Source: an uncultured virus (IMG/VR IMGVR_UViG_3300042273_000539) (taxonomy: Duplodnaviria; Heunggongvirae; Uroviricota; Caudoviricetes). Taken from it: a stretch of DNA of 64,000 nucleotides. The stretch is from the IMG/VR virus record IMGVR_UViG_3300042273_000539; one strand, written 5' to 3'. Positions 16,914 through 63,245 of the stretch are shown in pieces (positions within the stretch are counted from its first letter, which is position 1; every line of letters begins with the position of its first letter). Under the pieces are notes generated by a model. It ran no database searches. It worked only from the letters and a program-made list of their open reading frames with translations, and was not told the DNA's origin. The position numbers were made by a program, and so were the translations under genes.

Positions 16914-16938
16914 AAATAAGTGGGGTTTCCCCCACTTA
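16914..16938 (-). terminator. Intrinsic terminator after the DUF2828 gene
   Basis: TAAGTGGGG-AAA-CCCCACTTA followed by a T run on the minus strand. Confidence 0.75.
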
Positions 16939-18372
16939 CATGAAAAGTCTTTCTACTGGTGAATATCTTTCTCCGTTTATTACCTCAAGCATGAAGGTTT
17001 CTGGGGAGCACCCCTCGGAAACGGCAAACTTGAAAACAGAAGGAGAAGACCCAGAAACAAGAACTGTGTTGATTTCGTCCTTGGAAACTGGAACATTGTT
17101 TTGTCTAGAATTTACATTCCAGAATACAATTTTTGGTATAGTATAACCGGCAAGGGCATACTTTTCTTTGATTGCTTCATAGTTAGTAACAGAAAAGTTG
17201 CCTTTCCTTCCATAACTAGAACTAGTGGCTTCATCAAACTCCATATCAGATATGATATATATAGTTTCTGGCATTTCTTCTTGTGGAACTTTTTCAGCTA
17301 GACAGATAGAAAGAATAGTTCTGAAAGCCTTAATAAGGTCAGTATTCATATCCCAGTTTGCCCGAGATATATTCCTCATTTTTTCTCCCAAAGTTTTTCC
17401 TCTTACCTGTTCTACACTTGGGTTTCCACTGAAAGTCATAAAACTTCCGTTAAATCTTCCTTTGTTCCTTTCTGCAAAATACAAAGCCAAAGATATAGAA
17501 ACAGCTATTGGCAATCCAGCCATAGAACCAGATACATCTGCCATTACGATAGCATTTTTGCCATTGGTAAAGTCAGGCAAATTATCCCATAGAGCAGTTG
17601 CCTCTTTATCGTTTATTTTGCCTTCCATCAATCTGGTATAGATCTCATAAGGGTATAGTACAGAAGCATTTATTTTTGCCTCTCCACTCTTGACTTTATT
17701 GATATAAGCTCCAAATCTATCAGTATCATTTCTTCCAAAAGCCTTATTATAGTTAAGCATAGCCTTTGAAGGAACGTGTTCATAGTTGATTTCGTCCCAA
17801 TCTTTTGCACACATCTTGGTTTCTACAAGATTAAGTTTAGCCCGAAGAGCAGAAAGAGCCTTCCTGTATTGTCTTGGGGTAAGCCCCATATACCTTGCGA
17901 TTGCTTCAGCTTCTTTGTTAGAAGATCCACCAACAGAAGGCATATACTTTTCCAAAAGGGTAGGTGTTTTTTCTCTGATGTCTCTTTTGAAGACAGCAGA
18001 AACAAACTCTTCATATTCATCGTGAGTCATTACTTCAAATACATCCTTCCAAGAACCGTAATAAGACATTAGCTTAATAAGTTCAGCCTTTGGAGCATCT
18101 TTATATTTATTCAAAAGCCAGCGAGTAGCAACTCTGAAAAATCTCTTTTCTCCAAGTCCTCCCCTACAATCTCTGATATAGAAAAGGCACTTCATAGCAA
18201 GTTGAGGATTTTCTTTAAAAGCATTGGAAAACATATTGATAATTTCGCTATCTTGGCGAGTTCTCATAGAGCCTCCCATTGCGAACATATCAACCAAAGC
18301 GGATTTGGATGTGCTTCTTGTCAAAGCGCCATTTTCAGTAAGTGTAAAGTCATTAAGTGTTTTCCAGAACAT
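16936..18372 (-). CDS. TROVE/Ro60-like protein with VWA domain (DUF2828-like)
   Basis: TENGA, RDCRGGLGE, YGSWKD, LYPYEI, DVSGSM, SDMEFD, VFWNV motifs. Confidence 0.85.
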   Translation of the reverse strand: MFWKTLNDFTLTENGALTRSTSKSALVDMFAMGGSMRTRQDSEIINMFSNAFKENPQLAMKCLFYIRDCRGGLGEKRFFRVATRWLLNKYKDAPKAELIKLMSYYGSWKDVFEVMTHDEYEEFVSAVFKRDIREKTPTLLEKYMPSVGGSSNKEAEAIARYMGLTPRQYRKALSALRAKLNLVETKMCAKDWDEINYEHVPSKAMLNYNKAFGRNDTDRFGAYINKVKSGEAKINASVLYPYEIYTRLMEGKINDKEATALWDNLPDFTNGKNAIVMADVSGSMAGLPIAVSISLALYFAERNKGRFNGSFMTFSGNPSVEQVRGKTLGEKMRNISRANWDMNTDLIKAFRTILSICLAEKVPQEEMPETIYIISDMEFDEATSSSYGRKGNFSVTNYEAIKEKYALAGYTIPKIVFWNVNSRQNNVPVSKDEINTVLVSGSSPSVFKFAVSEGCSPETFMLEVINGERYSPVERLFM

Positions 18373-20308: not shown

Positions 20309-20998
20309 TTATTCTCCGATTCTTATAATATCATTATACAATAATCTAAAATTATTGTCAACTATTTCATCGGCATGAAAATGTCCGAAATACCATTTTT
20401 TGAAACCACCTTTTACTTGACGTTTAATCCCTTCAAGAGCAACTTCAGTAGGACAATGAAGGTTATATAACTTCTTACTCTTTATACGTCTCCGCACGGA
20501 AAACGGACAGGTGTGTGTAATGATGTAATCAACCGGCTGACTCTTAATAACATTTTCTGCCAATATTATTTCATCATCATTAGGAACTTCATCATACCAC
20601 CAGTTTATATTAGGAATTCTACTCATTCTATCAGTAGAGATAGCTCCTCCAAAAGTAAGCATAGTATCACCATTTATCACATAAGGTCTTCCCCTTCGTA
20701 AATGATAAATGCCCTCTCTTACTACACCAACTTCATTATCAAATCGGTATTCCATTTGAAGGTTTTTAAGCCTATCAAAGTTTTCATGGTTTCCATCCAC
20801 AAAGCAAATGGTACATCCATTAGTATTACTTTGGAGTTCATCAAGTCTTTCTTTTTCAAAAGAAGTTTCTTTCTCTGAAAATATATAACCAAAATCACCG
20901 CAGACAATAAGAAAATCATCTTTGGTAAATTCTGGTATGTTTTTTTTGTATAATGGAAACCTTCCATGTAAATCACCTGTGATGTATGTTTCTGCCAT
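20309..20998 (-). CDS. Calcineurin-like metallophosphoesterase
   Basis: GDLHG, GDFG, GNHE, THT, GHFH. Confidence 0.9.
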   Translation of the reverse strand: MAETYITGDLHGRFPLYKKNIPEFTKDDFLIVCGDFGYIFSEKETSFEKERLDELQSNTNGCTICFVDGNHENFDRLKNLQMEYRFDNEVGVVREGIYHLRRGRPYVINGDTMLTFGGAISTDRMSRIPNINWWYDEVPNDDEIILAENVIKSQPVDYIITHTCPFSVRRRIKSKKLYNLHCPTEVALEGIKRQVKGGFKKWYFGHFHADEIVDNNFRLLYNDIIRIGE

Positions 20999-21465
20999 TA
21001 TTTATCTGTTTCTATCTCTTCATCTTTTTGCTCTAAATCTTTTTGATGTTCTTCTGCTTCTTCAACAGAATCAAAATACACATTTACTGGAAATCTTTCC
21101 AGGGAATAAACAGTTCCATCTTCTAGAAAAATAGTGTTTGAAGAACCACCTTCGGGAATAGTTTCAATAACAAAGTTTTCCCCACTTTCAAAATGGCAGT
21201 TTCCTACAACTTCCACTTCTTCAATTTCGTATCGTTCGCCTTCTTCTTTTTTTACTTTTTTTGTATTTTCACATTGTGGGCAAATATAAGCAAGTTTTTT
21301 ATTTTCTTGTGTATATTTGTCAAATACTTCTACTTCTATATACCCTTTTGCTTTACAGTTAGGGCAATCTTCTTCAATTGAATATGGCTTTTTAGCCACT
21401 TTAAATTTCTTCATTTTTTCTCCTATACAAGTATATATGTATCTTTTCAAACAAAAAAGGCGCAC
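20998..21465 (-). CDS. DnaJ-type zinc-finger-containing hypothetical protein
   Basis: CPNCKAKG and CPQCE; the real start is probably the internal MKKFK. Confidence 0.55.
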   Translation of the reverse strand: MRLFCLKRYIYTCIGEKMKKFKVAKKPYSIEEDCPNCKAKGYIEVEVFDKYTQENKKLAYICPQCENTKKVKKEEGERYEIEEVEVVGNCHFESGENFVIETIPEGGSSNTIFLEDGTVYSLERFPVNVYFDSVEEAEEHQKDLEQKDEEIETDK

Positions 21466-21481
21466 TTAAAAAGTGCGCCTT
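21454..21481 (-). terminator. Intrinsic terminator ending the tRNA/ncRNA cluster
   Basis: AAGGCGCAC-TTTTTAA-GTGCGCCTT plus T run. Confidence 0.8.
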
Positions 21482-21484
21482 AAG

Positions 21485-21557
21485 GGTGAACGACGAGACT
21501 TGAACTCGCATCTACCAGCTCCACAACCTGGTGCATTACCATTATGCTACATTCACC
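21485..21557 (-). tRNA. tRNA-His(GTG)
   Basis: G-1:C73, loop TTGTGGA. Confidence 0.9.
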
Positions 21558-21568
21558 AAGAAATGATG

Positions 21569-21776
21569 CCTGAACCAGCGGAAAATAAAACAATCTCAAC
21601 TATTCTATTTACCTAGAGGTTTAAGGATATTCAGGCTTTACCTTAAACACGTATTAAACGCTTACTGCTGGATGTAAGTGTTTCCTATCCCTGAACCGTT
21701 TTTACTAATACAAATCTTCTTTTATTCAGGTTTTAGAAGATTGCTACACGCACTGGCTCAAACGGTAGAGGCGTGT
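21569..21776 (-). ncRNA. Two tandem double-pseudoknot RNA modules
   Basis: Each module has two hairpins whose loops complement a 3' tail ending TTCAGG. Confidence 0.55.
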
Positions 21777-21984
21777 CAAAACTTTGTACGGCAAGGATTT
21801 GAAGCCTTAGTAAGATTGGTGCCATTGGCATCACCGTAACCTTGCTTCCCCAAACAAGGTCTGCTGATTTTATTATGTGGCTCAACAGAAAAGCCAACCT
21901 TTACATTCCCACAAAATAAATAATACATTTATGGGACATCCCGAGTAAAGGCTCTTACCTCTATCTTACCAAGAAGTAAATAAT

Positions 21985-22135
21985 AATGAAGGTAGGGTTT
22001 AATACCTACATGAGCATTTAGGTTAACAGTGATACACTTAAGCTAGCTGTGTGTATTCTGTTATTTGGGATAGCCCCTGTTAATACAGTTTGCTCTATCC
22101 TTTTTCTACCTTGCGTCTGTTTCCGCCACTTCATT
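21985..22135 (-). ncRNA. tRNA-framed RNA with multi-hairpin insert (151 nt)
   Basis: AATGAAG/CTTCATT acceptor, D-like GCG-GAAACAGA-CGC, T-like GTAGG/CCTAC, no anticodon arm. Confidence 0.6.
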
Positions 22136-22140
22136 ATTAA

Positions 22141-22214
22141 TAGCAGAGGAGGGAGTCGAACCCTCGTGATTCGGCTTATGAGACCGAGCTGGAGCCTCTC
22201 CAGTCCACCCTGCG
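22141..22214 (-). tRNA. tRNA-Met(CAT), initiator-like
   Basis: Loop CTCATAA, C1xU72 mismatch. Confidence 0.8.
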
Positions 22215-22222
22215 ACGAATGC

Positions 22223-22282
22223 TGGATACTTTTCTTGGAATCGAACCAAATTTATCCTTATTAAGATTGCTGTAAGTATCCA
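22223..22282 (-). ncRNA. ACAGCAA-stem small RNA 1
   Basis: TGGATACTT/AAGTATCCA stem, ACAGCAA, T-arm-like TTGG-TTCGATT-CCAA. Confidence 0.7.
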
Positions 22283-22284
22283 AA

Positions 22285-22355
22285 TAGTCTATACCGGAAT
22301 TGAACCGATGTTTTCTGGCTGAGAACCAGGTGTCCTACCATTAGACGAATAGACC
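22285..22355 (-). tRNA. tRNA-Glu(CTC)
   Basis: Cloverleaf, loop TTCTCAG. Confidence 0.85.
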
Positions 22356-22608
22356 AAAATAAAAAGACAACAACATTTACAACGCCTTGCATCGGAAGGC
22401 TTTATTATCCCGATTCCCCCTCTCACTTGAGGTTACGCCATTTTTGTCCTGCGAAGACAAAGCCTTTGTTGTTGCTCGCTGACTAGATTCGCAGTCTTTG
22501 CCAGCACTAGCGCTACTTACCAGAGCTACTGGGGTAAGCGCATATAATACTTTAGTAGATGCTTTTTCGTTGCTAACGTTTTTTATCTACATAAGTTAAA
22601 ATTAAAAC

Positions 22609-22656
22609 TGGAAACTTTTAAAGCTACTCATTCAAGTTGTTTGCTGTTAGTTTCCA
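22609..22656 (-). ncRNA. ACAGCAA-stem small RNA 2
   Basis: TGGAAACT/AGTTTCCA stem with AACAGCAA. Confidence 0.65.
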
Positions 22657-22660
22657 AAGT

Positions 22661-22755
22661 GGTGTCGGTAGGATTCGAACCTACATAGCAGGATTGCAGA
22701 CGATGCCTGCACTCTCTTGGTCGTCTGCGGAGTTTGCCAATTTCTCTACGACACC
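22661..22755 (-). ncRNA. tRNA-like RNA with enlarged, possibly pseudoknotted anticodon arm
   Basis: GGTGTCG/CGACACC acceptor, normal D and T arms, 8-bp stem with 17-nt loop. Confidence 0.65.
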
Positions 22756-22758
22756 GTT

Positions 22759-22840
22759 GGACGATAAGGGAATTGAACCCTTATTTTAGTGGCTCCACTG
22801 TGGGTTTTACTACACTAACGCTACCATTGCTTAATCGCCC
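22759..22840 (-). ncRNA. tRNA-like RNA with enlarged anticodon arm
   Basis: GGGCGAT/ATCGTCC acceptor, T arm AAGGG-TTCAATT-CCCTT, TTAGTG/CACTAA stem enclosing 21 nt. Confidence 0.6.
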
Positions 22841-22913: not shown

Positions 22914-22942
22914 ATTATACAATTTTTTTAGTTTTTTGTCAA
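22914..22942 (-). promoter_or_regulatory. sigma70-type promoter driving the tRNA/ncRNA cluster
   Basis: TTGACA-17 nt-TATAAT. Confidence 0.85.
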
Positions 22943-24537: not shown

Positions 24538-24549
24538 TTTTATATCCTT

Positions 24550-24620
24550 TGGGAAAGAAGGGAATTGAACCCTCACCAGAAAATTTAGAGTTTTCTGTGC
24601 TACCGTTACACCACAAACCC
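24550..24620 (-). tRNA. Amber-suppressor-type tRNA (anticodon CTA)
   Basis: Loop CTCTAAA in stem AGAAAA/TTTTCT; D arm as in the local Gln tRNAs; acceptor has three U-U mismatches. Confidence 0.7.
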
Positions 24621-24930
24621 ATTCTATTATACATGTATTTTTATATAATTGTCTTTGTCAATAATTATTTTAATATCGTTAGGATAATCCCATCCGTCTC
24701 CAGCATAGAAAGCAATACTTTCTATATCTTCATATTTTATAGAAGATAAAGAATTATCATCTATAATTAGCATCCTTTCCTTGTTAAAGTCAATTAACAA
24801 CCTTCCAATAGAGGCAGTTACTTCTTGATTTTCTCTGAAACGAACAGTATTTTTTCTAAAATATTGTTTAAAAGAACTTAATACTTCTTCTACTTTCATA
24901 AAACGAACCTCTTTACATAATATTCTTTTT

Positions 24931-25142
24931 AGAGAAGGTAGGATTTGAACCTACATTCATGCCTGACTCTTATCGTGCACGAAAGAGAGTATTATGTACA
25001 CTTAACTCTCTGATTTTGCTCTACGTCTTCTCCAGCGCCTAGCTGGCGACAGATATGGGTGTCTGCCAACTGGAGCTATGAATAAAGTCACCGCCTCTGC
25101 AGCGACCGACAACATAACTCCCGTATTTTTCACCACTTCTCT
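24931..25142 (-). ncRNA. tRNA-framed RNA with large structured insert (212 nt)
   Basis: AGAGAAG/CTTCTCT acceptor, T arm GTAGG-TTCAAAT-CCTAC, long GGAGTTATG/CATAGCTCC arm and three extra hairpins. Confidence 0.65.
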
Positions 25143-25204
25143 ACCCACTGTTTTGCATAGGCTGGCACAGCGAAACCGTCATCCCACTTTCGTGGGGCAA
25201 AGTC

Positions 25205-25243
25205 AAAAAAGGACTGGGAAGATGTTTGGCACCCTCCCAGTCA
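25205..25243 (-). terminator. Intrinsic terminator after the Pth2-like gene
   Basis: GACTGGGA...TCCCAGTC hairpin followed by a T run. Confidence 0.7.
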
Positions 25244-25247
25244 AAAA

Positions 25248-25631
25248 TCACAAAAGTCTAAACCTTTCAAGTTCCCGAAGCCCTTCGCAAGGACCTATTG
25301 CCAAGCAAGTTGCTTCTTCCTTTTCTATGCCATTGCTGTCATAGAATCCGTTGTCTATCATTACATAAAACGGTAATGATGTTTTCTTAACACTTTCTAC
25401 TACATTATAAAAATCAGTTTCCGAGTTTGCTGAAAGAACTACTTTTGTAAATGGCTATCCTTTCTTTAAATCATTAAGAATAGCATCCGGTAAGTGGGAG
25501 AAGGTTACTGTTTTGTCGTTCCACTCTCCACTTGATAAAAGACACATAATAGCGCTGTGCGCCACTTGAGAAGCAATCCTCCCTTTTGACATTCCCAAGT
25601 CTTTCCTTACCAAAAAATACTGTTTAAGCAT
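25248..25631 (-). CDS. pth2: Peptidyl-tRNA hydrolase 2-like gene with in-frame TAG at codon 59 (readthrough or pseudogene)
   Basis: Hand translation MLKQYFLVRKDLGMSKGRIASQVAHSA...KKG*PFTKVVL...IDNG...TCLAIGP; missed by the ORF track. Confidence 0.8.
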
Positions 25632-27415: not shown

Positions 27416-27423
27416 ATAAAAAA

Positions 27424-27975
27424 GGAACCAATAAAAATTATAGACCTTCATCTTACTATCCAATACTTCTTGAATATTAGGTTACTTGACGATAGAACCT
27501 GTGCTATGGGTAATTACTCCTTAGCATTTCTAAAGGGGATTTCTCCCGAACTCAAGGTGGGAATGGCTACCCACAAATTTCATCCGACTTTCAGGTTGTT
27601 AATCATCCAATATGTTTAAGAACCTGTGGAATTGGACTACTTTACGATTATGCACAACTTATACACAGATTTCTCTGTTTCAACCACAGTCCCTTCTTGC
27701 TTTTGACTTTTCCAGCAGTATCAAAGTTGTCAAGCCCGACTTACTGGATGGCTAGCGTATCGCCTATTGCGAAGGGGTCAGCATAATGACCTTTTCAAGC
27801 GTATTTTCAAGCACCTGTCTCTTGCTTTAACCTTTTTGAGGTTTATCCATCTAATCTTACGATTTTGACAGTTGGTTAAGTCAGCACGTATCCGTGATAA
27901 CTCACCAAAGCATTCAAGACAGTCCAAGCAAGGTTGTTAGCCTTCATACACTTGGGTATAACATTTAATGATTCC
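27424..27975 (-). ncRNA. Large ornate ncRNA (about 552 nt; ROOL/GOLLD-like context)
   Basis: ORF-free, own TTGACA/TATAAT promoter (27992-28020), pairing ends GGAATCA/TGGTTCC, many hairpins, within a tRNA cluster. Confidence 0.6.
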
Positions 27976-28028
27976 AAAAAACTTATACTTTATTATAACA
28001 AAATTCTAAAATTTTGTCAATTTTCAAA

Positions 28029-32129: not shown

Positions 32130-32271
32130 ATAAAACATGGGTGTGCACACCCAAGGTAGGTCTCGCTCTACTAGCGTTGGTTCCTGTAGCCACCAAAAAG
32201 CACACCATGTACGAAAGCGCTTTAAACGTCATGGGTTTCAGCGTAAAAGGGGTGTCCACAGTTACGCTTTG

Positions 32272-52042: not shown

Positions 52043-53812
52043 TACGTTTCTCCTTTACGTTTCGTTTGATACCTTATGGTATCATTTTTTTAGTTTTTTG
52101 TCAAGCCCTATCATGTTTCATCTTTAAAGCCCTTTACGAGTTAAGTAAACGGCTTTAAACATAAAGCATAAAAAAAAACAAGAGAAATAACATCAGCCAT
52201 ACTAACAAATAAAACTTTAACTCCCATAGGGATATAGTTTTATCTCTATTCTGACATCTAGTTATTTCTCTTTTTCCTAATCAAACGTATTCAAATAATC
52301 CTACGTTTTGTAAGGTCTAGGTTATTATCCAAAAAATATTGTTATATTATATTAAATACCTTCTAGGGAGCGTCCCTTATTCGCATTGCGATTTACCTCC
52401 ATAACCTAACGTTAACTTATTATACTATTTTTTTAGTTTCTTGTCAAGCCCCAAATAAAGTTAGTTGGCTACACTGTGCGTATGCTCTAAAGACACATCA
52501 AGGACTACACCATACACCGAACTAATATAGCTAAATTTGTCTTACATTTTAGCTACATTTTCTATTATCCAGAACTTGCAAAAATCTAAAAGATTTAGAT
52601 ATAACGTTATCTAGAAACGACATATTTCACGCTTAAATATGTAAACTGCCTGCCTTGGACTTCTAATGTTTTTCAGTATTAAGGGTATAGCAAACTTATT
52701 TTCCCAGGCTAACACTATATCCCACAAAGTATTACGACACTTTGAATACGGAAAATCTGACGCTCATTCTGCGATATATCAATAGCGATATATAACTACC
52801 TATCCATTAACCTTGATAAGTTGAGGTGAGAAAAGTTTAAGTGAATCTCCCACTAGCCACAGTTTATTTTATTTCTGTCTACAAAAACCATAACTAAAAA
52901 ACATGCGACACCTTGCCTAGGATACGTTTGTTCAGTAAAACGGGCAAAAACCTACTCATTTGTTTTTTCTAGTAGGTAACAAGCAAAACCTATCCTGTCT
53001 TGTTTATTAAGGGAAAAAAGCAAAAACCTTTATAACAGCTTCACAGTGGTATCTACTATAGTAGACTTTTTTTCCGTTATTTTACAGAAAACGGTTTTAC
53101 ATCCTAGAAAACCACCGCACCTAATCACCTACTACACACCAGACAATGGAAGAACACAGGTAGGATAATGTTTCCATCCCCAGAATGGGAGTGGTGTGCA
53201 ACCTTGCTTTAACAAGGATATTATATTTTTAGTTTCTTGTCAAGAGGGGCAAAAGCCCCTCCGACATCCGACTCTACGCCAAGTCCACGAACCGGAACTT
53301 ATCCGCATACCTTTCGTGAGTTTCCCCATCAAAAGACTCGGAATACAACCGAAGGTTCTTTGCCTTTTCGGTTGGAACGGTCTTGACGGTAGCGTTAACC
53401 ACCTTATTCTTGTAAGAAACAAGAATTTCCGAACCCAACTTCAAAGAACCGGAAGCGATAAGCCCATTCACTCTAGCCACAGTAGCCTCTTGAGTTGCAG
53501 TAGCTTCAGCCTTGGCATCAGCTCTTGCACCTTTCTTCAAATCAGTCAGCAAAGTGCCAACTTCCAACAGCTCGTCATAAGACAGACCAGACAATACATT
53601 CTTAACATCTTCTCTCATTTTACGTTCTCCTTTACGTTTCGTTTGATACCCTATTGTATCATTTTTTTAGTTTTTTGTCAAGTAGGCAACGCTACTTGTT
53701 TTTTCATTCAGCGTTTCCGCTTTTCGTTAACTTATCATAGCATTTTTTTAGTTTTTTGTCAAGTAGGCAACGCTACTATCTAAAAACTAAACCTATTCCA
53801 TAAATCTGATTT

Positions 53813-56827: not shown

Positions 56828-59492
56828 TATGTAGGATACCATTTTTTTAGTTTCTTGTCAAGAGGGACAAAGGGCGGATAAAGTCTTGTGATACAACACG
56901 CACAGAACGCCCGTTTTCTATACTGATTACAGCTTTCCCCTTGTCGTGTCGGTATTCCTCTACCTTGCAAGGAATAAGCACACCTTTCCCGCCTTTGGTA
57001 TGATAGCACGCAATACTTCCCACAGGACACAATTCTTCCGCATTTGTCACAGGGACACCATACGCCTTTACTCTATAATCAGGTTTTACCCTAGCATAAC
57101 TCTTTTTTCCAGTAGGACATACGTGTACCCCTAGTGGCTCATTACGATATTCTCCAGCCTTAACTTGTTCCAGTAAACCATAGTCAGTCATACAGCCCCC
57201 TTGTCATGCCATCATTATAGCATTTTTTTAGTTTCTTGTCAAGCCCCTAATCGGCAGAACCGACTAACGATTGACTCGCTCAAAATACCATTTTTTTAGT
57301 TTCTTGTCAAGCCCCTCTTGCCTTGCTTGGCAAGCGGAAACGACACGCTTAAAATACTATTTTTTTAGTTTCTTGTCAAGCCCCTTGCAAGTGTTTTCCT
57401 TGCAAGGCGTTGACCGCTTCATACCATTATTTTATCATTTTTTTAGTTTCTTGTCAAGCCCCTCGCACGTATTTTCTTATAAGGAAAACAGGCGGGCGTG
57501 CGTGCGGGCGCACGCCCACGCGATATATCATTATAGCATTTTTTTAGTTTCTTGTCAAGCGGGTAAAAAATTTTCGTAAATCCTTATAATATATAGAGTT
57601 ATTTATAATGTTTATTAGGGTATATACAAAAGTTAGAGGGGATTTAAATAGGCAAAACCCCTATATAATAGGGGTTTTGAGGCACTTTTTTTGTGGTGGT
57701 AGTGCGACACCGATATAGGTATTTTTTAGAAATTTTTTGCTTTTTTTATAAATTTTAGAAAAAATTTTTAGAAAATTTCAAAATTTTCCCAAAGAACTTT
57801 TTTCCCAGCTTTGTCTTTTTCGTAATCAAACAATCTTTGTATTCCAGTTTCAACATGGTAAAAAATTACATCACTGCCAGAACGAACTACACATTTTCCT
57901 TCATTATTTACTGATATTAAAACTATATGGGTTTTACTAACGAAGTTAGAATGACCCCAAGAACCTTTACCACTTTGGCTTATTTTGTATAATCTTTTTA
58001 CCAACTTTTCAGCGGCTGGTGATAAATATTTTTTCTGCTCTTTCTTTAGTTTGTCAATTTTTTCTTTTTTCTCTTTTCTTTCGGCTTCATCTTCGTCAAT
58101 GTCAAAATCTTTGTACTGATATTGTTTTCCGCCTACTGCCTTCATAAGTTTTGAAAACGTAGAATAAATTTTTGCCTTACTATCCAAAGAAGGTTTATTA
58201 AATTCTTCAACCTCTTCTGGTGTTTTAGATCCTGCGTAAAACGATTTGTCATTTACTTTATACACGTAAAGATTTTCGCCTTCCGTCCGGTGGGTTACTC
58301 TCGCCCCTACGAATGCGTTATCTTTTGTCAATTCCATATATACCTCCCAAGATTATATGATATGTTTTTCTTTTTTAGTAAAGTTTTCCTTTACTTGTAT
58401 TTTGTTTAATAAGTATCTTTTAGAAAAAATGTTTATAGAGCTTTCTTCTATACAATCCTTTGCGTACTGAACTGGATTTGCTTTTGCTAGCATAGCCATA
58501 GCCATCCATCCACATAACATTTCTTCTAAACATTCTTTAGGCATATTTTTACCATGCCAATATTCGTAATGGTGCTTTTCTTTTTCTTTATGTTCTTCTT
58601 CCAACAGCGACACTTTTTCAATAAGCCTCTGTGATATATTTTTACCTTTTCTTAATAGATGAATATATCTGGCAAAAAGAAAATAATGTTTAAAGAAAAA
58701 GTTATCCATTTGTCTCCAGTTACAAAAAAGTGAAAACTTCTTTGCAACACGTATTAAGTAAATTTTATATACAACTATAAATGCTAGAAACACCGCCTAT
58801 CCTTTTTTATTTTACAACAGATGCCTTATAATACGTATCAAGTTTACAATCACAATCTGTCTTTGTCATTGTAGCAGGAATTTGGTTTTTTGTCAACTCT
58901 TTTTTCTTCATGTCAACATATACATTAAATAATGCTCTAGATGCTTTTTCTTCTTCGGTGTCTATTTCTATTTTAATCTTCATAGGCTATATCTCCTGGT
59001 TTTACTGTTGTGTTAATGATTTGCCCTCCTTCTTCATAAGAAACGGAAACATATAGGACTTTTTCTTTGTTTTCTTCAAACGCTATAGGAACATATTGTA
59101 CCGTAGCATTATCTACTATCCTTGTAGTGGAGGAAGGGAAAACTCCCTTTCCTCCACATTTTGGGCAAGTCATGCGATATTCCTTTGCGACACGTATTTC
59201 TCTGTTTCCTTTACAGACAGGGCAAGTATCATCTGTTGGAACTTTTACACTAAATTTTTCTTTGAAAATAGATTTGTCTAATACTTTCTCTAAAAATTTA
59301 TCCATATTATAATTCTTCTACCATTTCCTGTATTTCTTCTTCTTTATCAAAAAATTCTTGCATTGCTTCGTCATACCATTCCCAAGCATCAACTCCTGAA
59401 TCTTCAAGTGCTTGGAGTTTTGCTTCTGCGAGAAGCAACTCCAAATACTCTTCTTTTGTTATTTCTACCATTTCTTTCATTACTTTCTCCTA

Positions 59493-62400
59493 TCAACCGC
59501 AAGTAGAATATCCACAACTGCTACAAACCGTACAGCCACCCTCAAAAACCATAGTTCCACCACATTCAGGGCATTCTGCTTTATTAGAAGAAATCATTTC
59601 TCCATCAGGTATATAATACTTCAATACCCTCGCAATGGCTTTTTGGAACGTCCCAAACTTCTTTACTTTATTCATCTGTGCGACAATAAACTCCAATGGA
59701 ACTTGATGCCTCATCAATAAAGAAAGCAATCTACACATAGAAGCATAATCATCATTAAACACCTCTGCTAAATTTTCTACTACTATCTTACTTCGCTTGC
59801 CTTCAATAAGCAAATCATATCTACTGGCTTTTTCAGCACCATCATATACCTTAACAATACTACCTTCTTTAAATCTCTTTAAATCAACTATATCATCATG
59901 ATTATCTGTATAGAAGATTTCATATGGTGCGTTATTGTAAGGTGAATCTGGATTTTTACCAACTAGGACAATAACAGGTTCTTTATTAACTGTAATATCA
60001 TAGATATCGCAAGGCAAGCTTTCTGGACGTTTCATAGCATTTTTCAATACCTCAATATTTCTCCATCCATCATCTTTCTTTGTAGAAAGAATACCATCCA
60101 TAGAAGCACCTTCATGAAAAGAAGTAACTCCCTTCAATCCCTTTTTCCAGGAATACATGAATATATCTTTATATTGCTCTAGTGTAGTTTCAAAAGGCAT
60201 GTTAATGGTTTTACTGATACTGTGGTCTATCCAGTATTGAAGTGCTGCCTGTATATCTATTCCTTCTGTAATAGATACATTATGGGATACCACTACATAA
60301 TCAGGAAGATCATTTCCTTCTTTGTATCCTGCGTACTCTATGTATTCCAGCCATCCATCATCATATACAGTTTGTGTTTTTGTGGTATCATCATCCTGTC
60401 TTATAGACCTATCATACTGCAAAGAGAAAATAGGCTCAATACCAGAAGAACAGTTATTTCCCAAAGACAAAGAAGTGGTGTTATGACTAACATATGAATT
60501 TGCAATATAAGTTCTTCCGTCTGGAACTTCCAAGTCTAAAGTGTAATTATTACTATCGCTTATAGCAACAACTTCATCAATAAACAATCCCTTTCCAAAA
60601 TAATCATTAAGATAATCTACTTTCTCTTTTAAATCTTTTTTAATATATCTCTTTGCTCTCTCTTCTCCGATAGAGCCATATTTTTTCCAATAAATCCTGT
60701 AAGATAAATTGTTTGAATAGCTACCTTCATCAAGAGATTTATCATAAACTGAAATAGATGAATTAATACCTACTGCTCTCATTATAATAGCTAATTGTTG
60801 AGCATTTTTTTCGGAATAAGTATCAATATACATTGTCCCTCTGCTGCTTGAACCATCACCATAAAAATATCCATCAATATAAGAAAGGATACTTTCTTTA
60901 GAAGATAATCTTACTGCTTTTGGAATTTCTATTCCTAATGCTTTATTTTTTATTAATCCATTAATTTCTAAAAAGTTAAGTAATCTTTGAGAAGAAATAT
61001 ACACACTGTCACAATTTTTACCATTATCAACAACTTTAGAATTCCAATTAAATAAATTCTTAATCAGTTCAACAACTTCTATTGATTCATTTGTTAAATG
61101 ATTTAAGTTAATTCTTATGCCTTTGTTGTGAGTGCTACCATCTGCATTATAAAGTCCTAAAAAGAAAGCAAATTCAGCGGTAATCTCTTCCGGTAATCTT
61201 ATATCTTTTTCATTAGGGTGTTTTGCATAATCTGGAAGTATAAGCCGTTTATTATCTTTCTTTTCATATCCTCCAATTTTATAAACTATATTATCTCCAA
61301 CAGATAGGTCTTCAAGTTTCTTCCAGTCAAACGAAGTTCCATTTAACACTTTAAACTTATGATTTGGAGTTCCTTCTAAATTTACACCACTCTTTGTAGA
61401 TATTTTTTTAGTAGGTTTAAATCCATTTATAAAAGTATTCCTTATTCCTTCGTACTTTTCATATTCGTTTAATGCTCCAAGATTTTCTTGTGGTATCCAA
61501 GTTCCATCTTCATAGTTTTTATAATTAGGAATTAATTCTTCCAATGTGTATAAACCATCGTTAGTTGATACAATACTTTCTGGAACAAGACATCCGGTTG
61601 GTGCCGTGGTTAATATACCAATGTTTCTTAACCCGACTTCTTGAATTCTTTTCTGTGTTCCTTCACTTAACCTTGTAATAAATCCAGAATGCCCAATATG
61701 ACTATCATAAGCAGGAAACGAGCCTTTTTGTAATGCTAAATCAACAGAAGCATTATACGCACTTTCTGCTAGGACATTTCCCATTTCATATACAAAATCT
61801 ACACTTTCTTTACTTCCATATCTAATCTTTAATTTCAACAAAGCATCGCCAAGTCCTGTAATTCCAAGACCAATCCTTCTCCATGCTTTTGATATTTTCT
61901 CAATTTTTTCAAGAGGATAATCAGTAGCATCCAAGACATTATCCAAGAACCTTACTCCAAGTCTTGCCATGTTTTTAAATTCTTCCCAATCAAATTCTGC
62001 ATTCTCTGTAAATTGATTTTTTACCAATTTAGAAAGATTGATAGAAGATAGACAGCAAAGAGAATAAGAAGGCATTACGATTTCCATCAGTTATTGTTAA
62101 GCTCTTTATCTTAACTCTCCGATTTTCACCGGAGTGTCGGACTATATCTTCACCCATAATATGGGGCAGGGCGCTCGTGGGAAAATTACCTACCGTTCTG
62201 GTATCGTTTCCTAGTCTCTGAACCTTGCAGAGTATTCCTACTCTACCTTGGATGCTGATTAGCATATTCTTTTTCAAGAATTTAGCTTTCCAGCAGTTCA
62301 CCCTGTTTTTTACTTGAGGCAAGATTATTTACCACAAGGATTGCATCTATCTACCTTAAAAGCGTGAGAAGCATTGTTTCCTGCTTCCACTGTATCAAGG

Positions 62401-63245
62401 AACAAAGCACCTGGCTCATTATACCACCAAGCCTGTTTAGTCATTCTTTCATACAAATCTTTTGCTCTTACAGTTTTATACACCTTTACTAAAATAAGAT
62501 CTGTGTCGTCAACAGTATATCCTTGGTCTATACAATATTGTAAATCAAAGTTGTTTTTAACCCATTTTGTTTTACAATTTTCTTCGCTTTCAAATTTCAT
62601 AAGAGGGAATACCAAATCCCAGTCTTCATCATTTTCAACTGCTCTCATAAACTCATCAGTAATACCTACTGAAATATTAAATTGAGTAAGTTTATTATTC
62701 TCTCTTCCTTTCTTATATTCAATAAATTCTTCAATATCTGGATGGTCTACATTAAGGATACAAATGTGCGCCCCTCTACGACCACCTCCTGTATGTATAG
62801 CTTTAGCAGAAGTATCAAATACCTCTATAAAACTCATAACGCCAGAACTTTCTCCGCCTTTGCTAATCAATGCGCCTTTAGGACGAAGTTTTGAAGCGTT
62901 AAATCCAACACCTCCACCCATTTGACCGATGATAGCATCTTCGCTTACTGGCCCATAAATGCCAGGCATTGAATCCTCTAAATCAATAGTAAAACAGTTG
63001 TTGTAGTTTTTCATTCTGGAATAAGGTCTAGCATTTGCCAATATTCTTCCCGCTGGGATAAATTTACCAGAAATCATAGCTTGATAGAAATACTCTTGCC
63101 AAATGTTTTTTAAATTATCATCCGGTTCTACAGACGCTATTTCTTCTGCTACTCCTTTTAAGATTTCTTCTACTGTTTTTTCTCCGTGAAGAGCATATTT
63201 TCTAAAAAATATCTCCCTTGAAATATCCTGTTTAAATTCAAACAC
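59493..63245 (-). CDS. nrdJ: Class II (B12-dependent) ribonucleotide reductase; exons 63245-62331 and 62084-59493
   Basis: PAGRIL, NCF, GGGVG, RRGA, NPCG|EI, RRIGLG, TAPTG..SSGIEP, ISKTIN, C-terminal CxxC..CG. Confidence 0.9.
60480..61592 (-). mobile_element. Intein with LAGLIDADG endonuclease (371 aa) in nrdJ
   Basis: APTG|CLVPES...TPNH...LGLYNADGS...GYFYGDGS...VSHN|TTS. Confidence 0.92.
62085..62330 (-). mobile_element. Group I intron (246 nt, no intact ORF) in nrdJ
   Basis: Exon ends in U with P1 partner GCCTCA, terminal G, AACTGCTGGAAA, AATCAGCA, TTCAGAGACTA, AAGATATAGTCC; splicing restores NPCGE. Confidence 0.92.

Follow-up and report, generated by a model that had tools for sequence, protein, structure and literature searches.

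The systems closest to the element described here resemble it in different respects. This element is a tandem pair of RNA modules at positions 21569–21776 of a 64,000-nucleotide (nt) stretch of DNA from an uncultured caudoviricete virus (IMG/VR record IMGVR_UViG_3300042273_000539; the whole stretch is referred to below as the window). The T4 RNAs RNAC and RNAD and the large RNAs ROOL and GOLLD are nearest by setting, MALAT1 by the mechanism that we propose, and the T-shaped structure (TSS) of turnip crinkle virus (TCV) by architecture. RNAC and RNAD are small stable non-tRNA RNAs of unknown role that are transcribed within the T4 tRNA region (PMC3014915, PMC9697503), and GOLLD is among the large ornate RNAs of bacteria for which structures have been reported (10.1101/2024.12.08.627333). 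The 3′ end of MALAT1 is cut by RNase P at a downstream tRNA-like element, mascRNA, and protected by a triple helix (PMC13170383, PMC8457004), and the TCV TSS is a compact internal element in which hairpin loops pair with nearby strands to give two pseudoknots (PMC5336357).

The two modules of the present locus are the 3′ domain of a structured noncoding RNA with a conserved core of ~0.42 kb (21980–21558, minus strand), and we consider it very probable that this is a real structured RNA. By the tests that we ran, they belong to none of the systems named above. Their likeness to RNAC and RNAD, which is one of setting and description only, is that of a non-tRNA RNA among phage tRNA genes, and the locus does provide such a setting, namely a gap between co-oriented tRNA genes in a myophage-like window; however, the present RNA is larger (core ~420 nt), and the T4 RNAs are not known to have a double-pseudoknot module. 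ROOL and GOLLD are likewise large structured phage-carried RNAs of unknown function, and a ROOL copy lies in this very array, but the present RNA differs from them in size and architecture, with no model match at the modules. In the case of MALAT1, the likeness is an analogy of mechanism only, as cleavage and protection are what we infer for the phage RNA; MALAT1 is eukaryotic and nuclear, with a U·A-U triple helix (the element for nuclear expression, ENE), whereas the phage RNA has a genuine tRNA-His downstream and a strand complementary to two hairpin loops. The TCV TSS is a ribosome-binding translation enhancer of a plant RNA virus with three hairpins, in which the pseudoknot partners are not one shared strand; it has no sequence relation to the phage modules, which are known from their sequence alone.

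Consecutive H-type pseudoknots near a tRNA or tRNA-like element are also found in tmRNA (PK1–4) and in the upstream pseudoknot domain of tobamoviruses, which precedes a histidine-accepting tRNA-like end, each of these being a single hairpin-loop knot. The present modules, if their predicted knots form, would share with these strings the arrangement of consecutive knots beside a tRNA, and differ from them in the proposed design of two loops stapled by one strand and in giving no tmRNA or Rfam match.

Each module consists of two successive hairpins (H1 and H2, with loops 1 and 2) and a tail (Table 1). In both Module 1 (M1) and Module 2 (M2), the tail starts with a segment that is Watson–Crick complementary to part of loop 1 and continues with one complementary to the CCUGAA of loop 2. 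All four loop–tail complementarities are 5–7 base pairs (bp) in length and Watson–Crick throughout when read from the sequence. Every hairpin, loop and tail that an earlier note on this DNA had listed is indeed present on the minus strand where the note placed it; to these can be added that H1 of M2 spans ten positions with a single A·C mismatch (21679:21660), and that the linker of M2 (21618–21580, 39 nt) contains a 12-bp hairpin (21610–21583) with three G·U pairs, neither of which the note had mentioned. The 11–12-nt tail of each module could therefore staple both of its loops, as two predicted H-type pseudoknots sharing one continuous strand, and the loop lengths presumably fit such knots, judging from the sequence and from general knowledge of their geometry. 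We lean slightly toward both loop–tail helices of a module forming together in this way, as their complementarity would predict.

The two copies keep this topology with different letters, just as the earlier note had claimed. In both modules, H2 is a perfect 8-bp inverted repeat with exactly 14 nt between its arms (repeats I8 and I11), yet seven of the eight H2 pairs are changed on both sides between the copies, with all 16 pairs being Watson–Crick, and the loop 1–tail helix is wholly different (CCGUUU:AAACGG in M1 vs CCAGC:GCUGG in M2). The letters that the copies have in common, which extend further than first reported, are UAAARCCUGAAUA in loop 2 and GGUUCAGGSAU in the tail, identical at 10 of 11 positions (repeat comparison, family D5). 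The covariation between copies to which the note pointed involves only two paralogous copies that were aligned by eye. The modules are adjacent and co-oriented, and they do not stand alone, being the 3′ part of the larger conserved structured stretch 21980–21558.

The bare topology is common in a lenient search (54 and 67 raw hits per strand in this window of 33% G+C), and TTCAGG occurs 26 times where 30.1 occurrences would be expected, so that this hexamer shows no enrichment; the topology alone therefore proves little. We then scored each place on both strands by the summed helix energies of its two hairpins and two loop–tail helices. By this descriptor, M2 and M1 rank first and second (scores in Table 1) of 37 distinct places in the window, with the third at −12.3, and these top two places are neighbors, co-oriented, and have loop and tail letters in common. 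None of 25 dinucleotide-preserving shuffles of the whole window reaches −20.8: the top-scoring place of a shuffle lies between −8.7 and −18.4, and the runner-up is never beyond −14.0. The third-ranked place, at 32268 between tRNA-Ala and tRNA-Phe, was rejected as a further candidate, as its fold is no better than that of shuffles (z −0.77).

Folding calculations point in the same direction. The 244-nt stretch around the modules has a folding z of −3.03, and the minus strand of 21985–21558 (428 nt) has a minimum free energy (MFE) of −122.7 kcal mol–1 (z −3.85), with none of 100 shuffles as good, compared with −98.2 kcal mol–1 for the plus strand (z −2.10), where four of 100 shuffles are as good. 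From this advantage and the G·U pairs we conclude that the RNA is read from the minus strand, in agreement with the strand assigned in the earlier note and with a strain variant (described below) that turns an A–U pair into G·U. The 5′ domain (21777–21980), taken on its own, has a folding z of −3.24 (one of 200 shuffles folds as well), and the pair probabilities of its closing helix (21974–21963 : 21816–21805) in the nested ensemble are ~0.9.

The stretch, or part of it, occurs in 20 public sequencing runs, six of which are RNA libraries, and we compared contigs from three RNA runs of three studies (X15, X17 and X20) and one DNA run (X10), bearing in mind that contigs give no strand, ends or level and that DNA can occur in RNA libraries. 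The modules are covered wholly or partly by contigs in all three RNA runs. The X17 run provides a single 850-nt contig spanning 21568–21986 and 22208–22577, with 21987–22207 swapped for 60 other letters, and its end at 21568 lies one base past the M2 tail; the X15 and X20 runs provide contigs of 623 nt (21657–22279) and 306 nt (21648–21953), respectively. An X10 DNA contig skips 21981–22137. Because of the X17 replacement and the X10 skip, we regard the 5′ part beyond ~21980, including the tRNA-Met-like gene, as optional, and ~21980–21558 as the conserved core; the strain breakpoints, at 21980 and 21986, sit just outside the closing helix. The tRNA-Met-like gene and ~150 nt beside it thus form a cassette-like polymorphism inside the RNA unit.

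In contrast to this variable part, the core is nearly invariant, with no difference in X15 where it is covered, one substitution in X20, and three substitutions and one indel in 419 nt in X17 (of which two substitutions and the indel are itemized). Both itemized variants at positions paired in the MFE structure keep their pairing: A21681G changes A–U to G·U in H1 of M2 (pair 21681:21658), where the other strand would give a C·A mismatch, and U21809C changes U·G to C–G in the closing helix of the 5′ domain. G21792A falls on a base unpaired in the MFE structure, and the indel adds one A to the A run in the linker of M1. One X10 DNA contig (contig 2) has no itemized difference in 21528–21980, vs six substitutions and one 2-nt insertion in 21467–21527 (two substitutions and one gap of this contig are not itemized), such that its tRNA-His and terminator part looks like a swapped cassette. 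A more divergent X10 contig (depth 2.3) matches 21713–21806 only, with 10 substitutions and three gaps; of its seven itemized differences, six fall within the H1–H2 junction or the 3′ half of M1 loop 1, and one removes the outermost A of H2, with six further substitutions not itemized. Strain variation is thus too small for a covariation test to be feasible. No X15 or X17 RNA contig of the same organism lies on the protein genes at 21000–21480, which is not a sign of silence or of relative abundance, just as the contig depths (75, 133.5 and 3.25) cannot rank expression. We note also that, around the H1/H2 junction of M2, the X15 RNA contig stops at 21657 and the X20 RNA contig, from a different study, at 21648, only 9 nt away, whereas 21648–21657 is spanned by the third RNA contig and by a DNA contig.

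At the sensitivity of our searches, by which remote homologues with other loop letters would have escaped, we know this RNA from a single phage lineage. The region has a 100% identical counterpart in one IMG/VR record, and blastn against 50,697 phage records gave matches to the flanking tRNAs only. Searches with the 138-amino-acid (aa) neighbor, the tail sheath and the 526-aa neighbor each retrieved only the near-identical IMG/VR record, the extra 20.5 kb of record G001 contain neither another module, the best-scoring place being at −6.9, nor any similarity, and the gaps before tRNA-His at four foreign loci hold nothing similar. Among relatives of the DUF2828 protein encoded in the window, 38 foreign IMG/VR loci (580,566 nt) contain 24 descriptor places at −14 or below, none of which has this architecture, and among relatives of the neighboring metallophosphoesterase, 79 foreign IMG/VR loci (630,026 nt) contain 10 places at −16 or below, none of them alike. 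Pattern searches were equally unproductive: TAAARCCTGAATAN{25,55}TTCAGG gave 28 stretches in IMG/VR, with the stems only in the near-identical record; CCTGAATAN{23,53}GGTTCAGG gave at least 119 stretches in IMG/VR, those listed being mostly one conserved coding gene; TAAARCCTGAATAN{23,53}GGTTCAGG gave 25 stretches in metagenome contigs and 28 in genome contigs, none with the hairpin; and the 18-mer of M1 loop 2 gave two stretches, namely the near-identical record and a chance match. Two loci with a 9-bp stem around the loop (L018 and L026) were dismissed because they lie antisense inside a 222-aa open frame. Finally, MAFFT produced no structural alignment of the two modules, and a covariance model with M1 as its only sequence gave 16 matches in the window at E ≤ 10, M2 not among them, with fragments only in a local search.

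Nor do the modules correspond to a catalogued family. The earlier note had recognized none, which an Rfam 15 scan of the whole window bears out, as none of its 36 matches at the gathering thresholds falls within 21569–21776; at E ≤ 10, a scan of 21400–22300 gave 12 matches, the sole one overlapping a module being sroH, at 17.8 bits vs a gathering score of 80. Rfam and ARAGORN call the flanking tRNA-His and tRNA-Met-like genes, with no tRNA call on the modules and no tmRNA. The ROOL model (RF03087) matches full-length at 27422–27979 (minus strand; 236.2 bits, E 2e-52), in a tRNA-flanked position 5.6 kb upstream of the modules, and not at the modules themselves. The repeats of ToxI-like type III toxin–antitoxin systems are likewise a poor comparison, as the two copies differ in nearly all stem letters; downstream of the modules lie tRNA-His and a terminator rather than an endoribonuclease toxin gene, and the 11 neighboring proteins include no toxin-type PADLOC family, with one weak PDC-S10 match, on the phosphoesterase. 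No Y RNA-type (Y RNA or YrlA) Rfam match is found in the window or at the modules, despite the presence of a TROVE-like gene 3.2 kb downstream.

The RNA lies in a self-contained, RNA-only unit that runs, in order, from a consensus promoter site through two tRNA-like genes, tRNA-Glu, the optional tRNA-Met-like gene, the structured RNA and tRNA-His to a terminator (Table 1). The 584-nt gap between the tRNA-Met-like gene and tRNA-His holds no credible reading frame, and a coding reading of the modules was rejected, as short frames over them would be broken by strain indels. A 50-aa ATG frame (21776–21928, minus strand) overlaps the 5′ domain, with its stop at the first base of M1 and no evident ribosome-binding site; of two strain substitutions inside it, one is synonymous and one changes Cys to Tyr. 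The 303-nt gap after the two tRNA-like genes (22357–22659) has a folding z of −1.96, and the X17 RNA contig extends over part of it.

Table 1. Features of the RNA unit, from the promoter-like site to the terminator-like hairpin, with the parts of the two modules (M1, M2).
Feature	Position	Strand	Remarks
Promoter-like site TTGACA-17-TATAAT	22914–22942	−	12/12 sigma-70 consensus; consensus match only
Two tRNA-like genes	22758–22840 (83 nt), 22660–22755 (96 nt)	−	Rfam tRNA 33.6 and 43.8 bits; no ARAGORN call
tRNA-Glu (CUC)	22284–22356	−	Rfam and ARAGORN
Weak tRNA-Met-like gene	22141–22214	−	Rfam 33.7 bits; ARAGORN tRNA-Met(CAU); absent in some strains
Variable 5′ spacer of gap	21981–22140	−	z −3.07; dispensable between strains, joints at 21980/21986
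Conserved 5′ domain	21777–21980	−	Closed by long-range helix 21974–21963 : 21816–21805
Module 1 (M1)	21690–21776	−	Sequence reading; score −20.8, rank 2/37
M1 H1	ACACGC 21776–21771 : GCGUGU 21751–21746	−	19-nt loop 1 (21770–21752) with CCGUUU (21765–21760)
M1 H1–H2 junction	3 nt	−	
M1 H2	AAUCUUCU 21742–21735 : AGAAGAUU 21720–21713	−	14-nt loop 2 AAAACCUGAAUAAA (21734–21721)
M1 linker	21712–21702, 11 nt	−	
M1 tail	AAACGG+UUCAGG 21701–21690	−	
Module 2 (M2)	21569–21683	−	Sequence reading; score −25.7, rank 1/37
M2 H1	AAACACUUAC 21683–21674 : GUAAGCGUUU 21665–21656	−	8-nt loop 1 AUCCAGCA (21673–21666)
M2 H1–H2 junction	7 nt	−	
M2 H2	GUUUAAGG 21648–21641 : CCUUAAAC 21626–21619	−	14-nt loop 2 UAAAGCCUGAAUAU (21640–21627)
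M2 tail	GCUGG+UUCAGG 21579–21569	−	
Spacer, M2 tail to G-1 of tRNA-His	21558–21568, 11 nt	−	Expected RNA 3′ end after RNase P (inferred)
tRNA-His (GUG)	21484–21556, encoded G-1 at 21557	−	Rfam 61.5 bits and ARAGORN
Intrinsic-terminator-like hairpin	21457–21481	−	11 pairs (6 G–C), then U run TTTTGTTTGA; consensus match only

The position of the modules suggests a way in which such an RNA could be made and kept. The end of the M2 tail and the site at which RNase P is expected to cut at tRNA-His are 11 nt apart. If the primary transcript is cut by tRNA-processing enzymes, as established tRNA maturation would lead one to expect, RNase P acting at tRNA-His would release the upstream RNA with a 3′ end lying ~11 nt beyond the M2 tail. 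Such a tail, if locked into two loops, would offer 3′-to-5′ exonucleases little single strand and would block their progress, and a knotted 3′ domain that hides the end could allow what is a processed byproduct of the tRNA operon to persist as a stable RNA. We give an even chance to this reading as a whole, that is, to a stable structured phage RNA that is released by tRNA processing and has knots locking its 3′ end, while protection of the 3′ end as the actual role of the knots is a tentative proposal that we would sooner doubt than accept. Judging from this position, a nuclease-resistant RNA is the one that we favor among the three suggestions of the earlier note, the others being a ribozyme and a protein sponge.

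A number of points weigh against this reading. The idea of 3′-end protection covers M2 only, as the M1 tail is internal. The pseudoknots themselves are predicted from complementarity, and the nested ensemble divides the M2 tail about evenly between a helix with its own loop 2 (probability ~0.48) and a 13-bp inter-module helix (~0.50), with H1 of M1 and H2 of M2 being improbable (0.19 and 0.07, respectively). There is no homologue beyond near-identical strains, and hence no phylogenetic covariation; the sole covariation is that between the two eye-aligned paralogous copies, which MAFFT misaligns and of which the M1 model misses M2. Two of the RNA contigs end inside M2 (21657 and 21648), contigs say nothing about strand, ends or level, and presence in RNA libraries is no proof of transcription. 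Both the promoter and the terminator were assigned by consensus match only.

The competing inter-module helix forms the basis of what we consider the best of the alternatives, although an unlikely one, namely, that the loop–tail helices are mutually exclusive and that the RNA is a two-state, alternative-pairing switch, in which the M2 tail (21580–21568) would pair either with the 3′ half of M1 loop 1 (21763–21751) or with its own loops. The helix in question, between GUUUGAGCCAGUG in M1 loop 1 (21763–21751) and CGCUGGUUCAGGC in the M2 tail (21580–21568), covers 13 positions, including four G·U pairs, and no other single helix in the 428-nt RNA is as strong (−18.5 kcal mol–1). As seen above, this helix is about as probable in the pseudoknot-free ensemble as the M2 loop 2–tail helix, and M1 loop 1 is in addition complementary to its own tail at 10 of 12 positions as one stretch (repeat I3). 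Against this, a helix of such strength is reached by seven of 200 shuffles, which is marginal, four of its 13 pairs being G·U, and it may be a relic of duplication, with CCAG present in both loop 1 sequences and GG-UUCAGG in both tails. The itemized changes of the divergent, low-depth X10 contig moreover hit this loop segment, which fits an unconstrained segment unless the tail has also changed, and a switch would have no evident trigger. As an observation in its own right, the 13-bp complementarity could reflect a switch, a duplication relic, or chance.

The complementarity of the shared letters would also permit assembly in trans, where the identical loop 2/tail pair acts between modules or between molecules to give oligomers, as in ROOL and GOLLD. 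Loop 2 (CCUGAAU) of either module fits either tail (GUUCAGG) equally well (−7.6 each), and the tRNA array that holds the modules also carries the ROOL RNA, at a distance of 5.6 kb. However, no result obtained here favors intermolecular pairing, the module-specific loop 1 and tail part favor pairing in cis, and the modules resemble ROOL neither in sequence nor by model match, so that we regard assembly in trans as quite improbable.

We place on the same low level the possibility that the modules form an L- or T-shaped mimic of tRNA that occupies a tRNA-binding factor, such as a tRNA-cutting defense nuclease of the host. Such a decoy would be at home inside the tRNA array of a phage that encodes an RtcB ligase, a CCA-adding enzyme and a TROVE-like DUF2828 protein, and there is a precedent in the hairpins H4a, H4b and H5 and two pseudoknots of the TCV TSS (PMC5336357). 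The modules, on the other hand, match no tRNA or tRNA-like model at E ≤ 10 and are not called by ARAGORN, they have no CCA-like end, and the 11 neighboring proteins belong to no defense or antidefense family apart from the one weak PDC-S10 match.

Marginally less credible still is a functionless spacer, i.e., a duplicated and decaying leader of the tRNA operon, the hairpins of which merely aid processing or are neutral. The restriction of the RNA to a single phage lineage, with all homologue searches negative, would suit such a spacer, as would the gain and loss of parts of the same gap between strains. It is nevertheless hard to see how, without selection, nearly every stem letter could have diverged with perfect pairing, equal loop lengths and identical loop/tail cores kept, and the strain contigs show few differences in the core. 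A pair of self-cleaving ribozymes we consider highly improbable: the compact double-pseudoknot topology in a phage and the two RNA contig ends 9 nt apart (a weak hint at most) are outweighed by the lack of any match to an Rfam ribozyme model at the locus up to E = 10 (hammerhead, twister, twister-sister, pistol, hatchet, HDV-like and glmS), which leaves this suggestion of the earlier note unsupported, by the third RNA contig that runs through 21648–21657, by the absence of a conserved core beyond the paired loop and tail, and by a helix order that we take to be unlike that of the HDV-like, twister and pistol folds.

With regard to the wider surroundings, the window, which comes from a large tailed phage of myophage type, has its 34–36 tRNA genes on the minus strand throughout, as well as the ROOL RNA. 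Its proteins include a tail sheath, an RtcB ligase, a CCA-adding enzyme, a ribonucleotide reductase and a DUF2828/DUF7788 "RNA-binding" protein, the sheath sharing only 27–33% identity with its counterparts in cultured myophages, T4-like and other. The DUF2828/DUF7788 gene (16936–18372, minus strand), 3.2 kb downstream of the modules, encodes a TROVE-like protein with a vWA domain (phrog_850, "RNA-binding protein"), the relatives of which have tRNA genes in the fetched flanks at 24 of 38 foreign IMG/VR loci (L032–L069), mostly on the same strand. The metallophosphoesterase gene (20309–20998, minus strand) lies just downstream of the unit, and its relatives have tRNA genes within 4 kb at 39 of 79 foreign loci (L249–L327), with these often beginning directly after the metallophosphoesterase gene. 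The tRNA at 24549–24621 (minus strand), with anticodon CUA (ARAGORN "Pyl"), looks like an amber suppressor, and reading TAG as Gln brings no obvious lengthening of frames in 51.5–58 kb. The large subunit of ribonucleotide reductase (59493–63245, minus strand) appears in two frames of 306 and 864 aa, the latter including an endonuclease-like part that suggests an inserted mobile element. Other long stretches with no minus-strand frame of at least 60 aa lie at 52043–53239 (1197 nt), 24900–25623 (724 nt) and 57192–57767 (576 nt).

Extra structured RNAs in phage tRNA clusters, large ornate ones such as ROOL among them, are already known; what is new here is an uncatalogued structured RNA with an unusual repeated motif, such that a compact motif of two loops and one stapling strand, present twice with different letters, is added to the extra RNAs of such clusters. 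The motif lies in an RNA unit that runs from promoter to terminator and occurs in RNA libraries from several habitats, and with its two copies nature has in effect already carried out a compensatory-mutation experiment. The place of the modules right before tRNA-His provides a testable idea of how the 3′ end of an RNA could be made and protected in a bacterial virus, and if this idea holds, the module could serve as a small RNA-stabilizing element. In its boldest form, which we consider improbable, the "stapled" double pseudoknot would be a new modular RNA-end cap which, when placed before a tRNA, has RNase P make a 3′ end that is already knotted and exonuclease-resistant. Were this true, the cap would be the bacterial-virus counterpart of the triple-helix/mascRNA arrangement of MALAT1.

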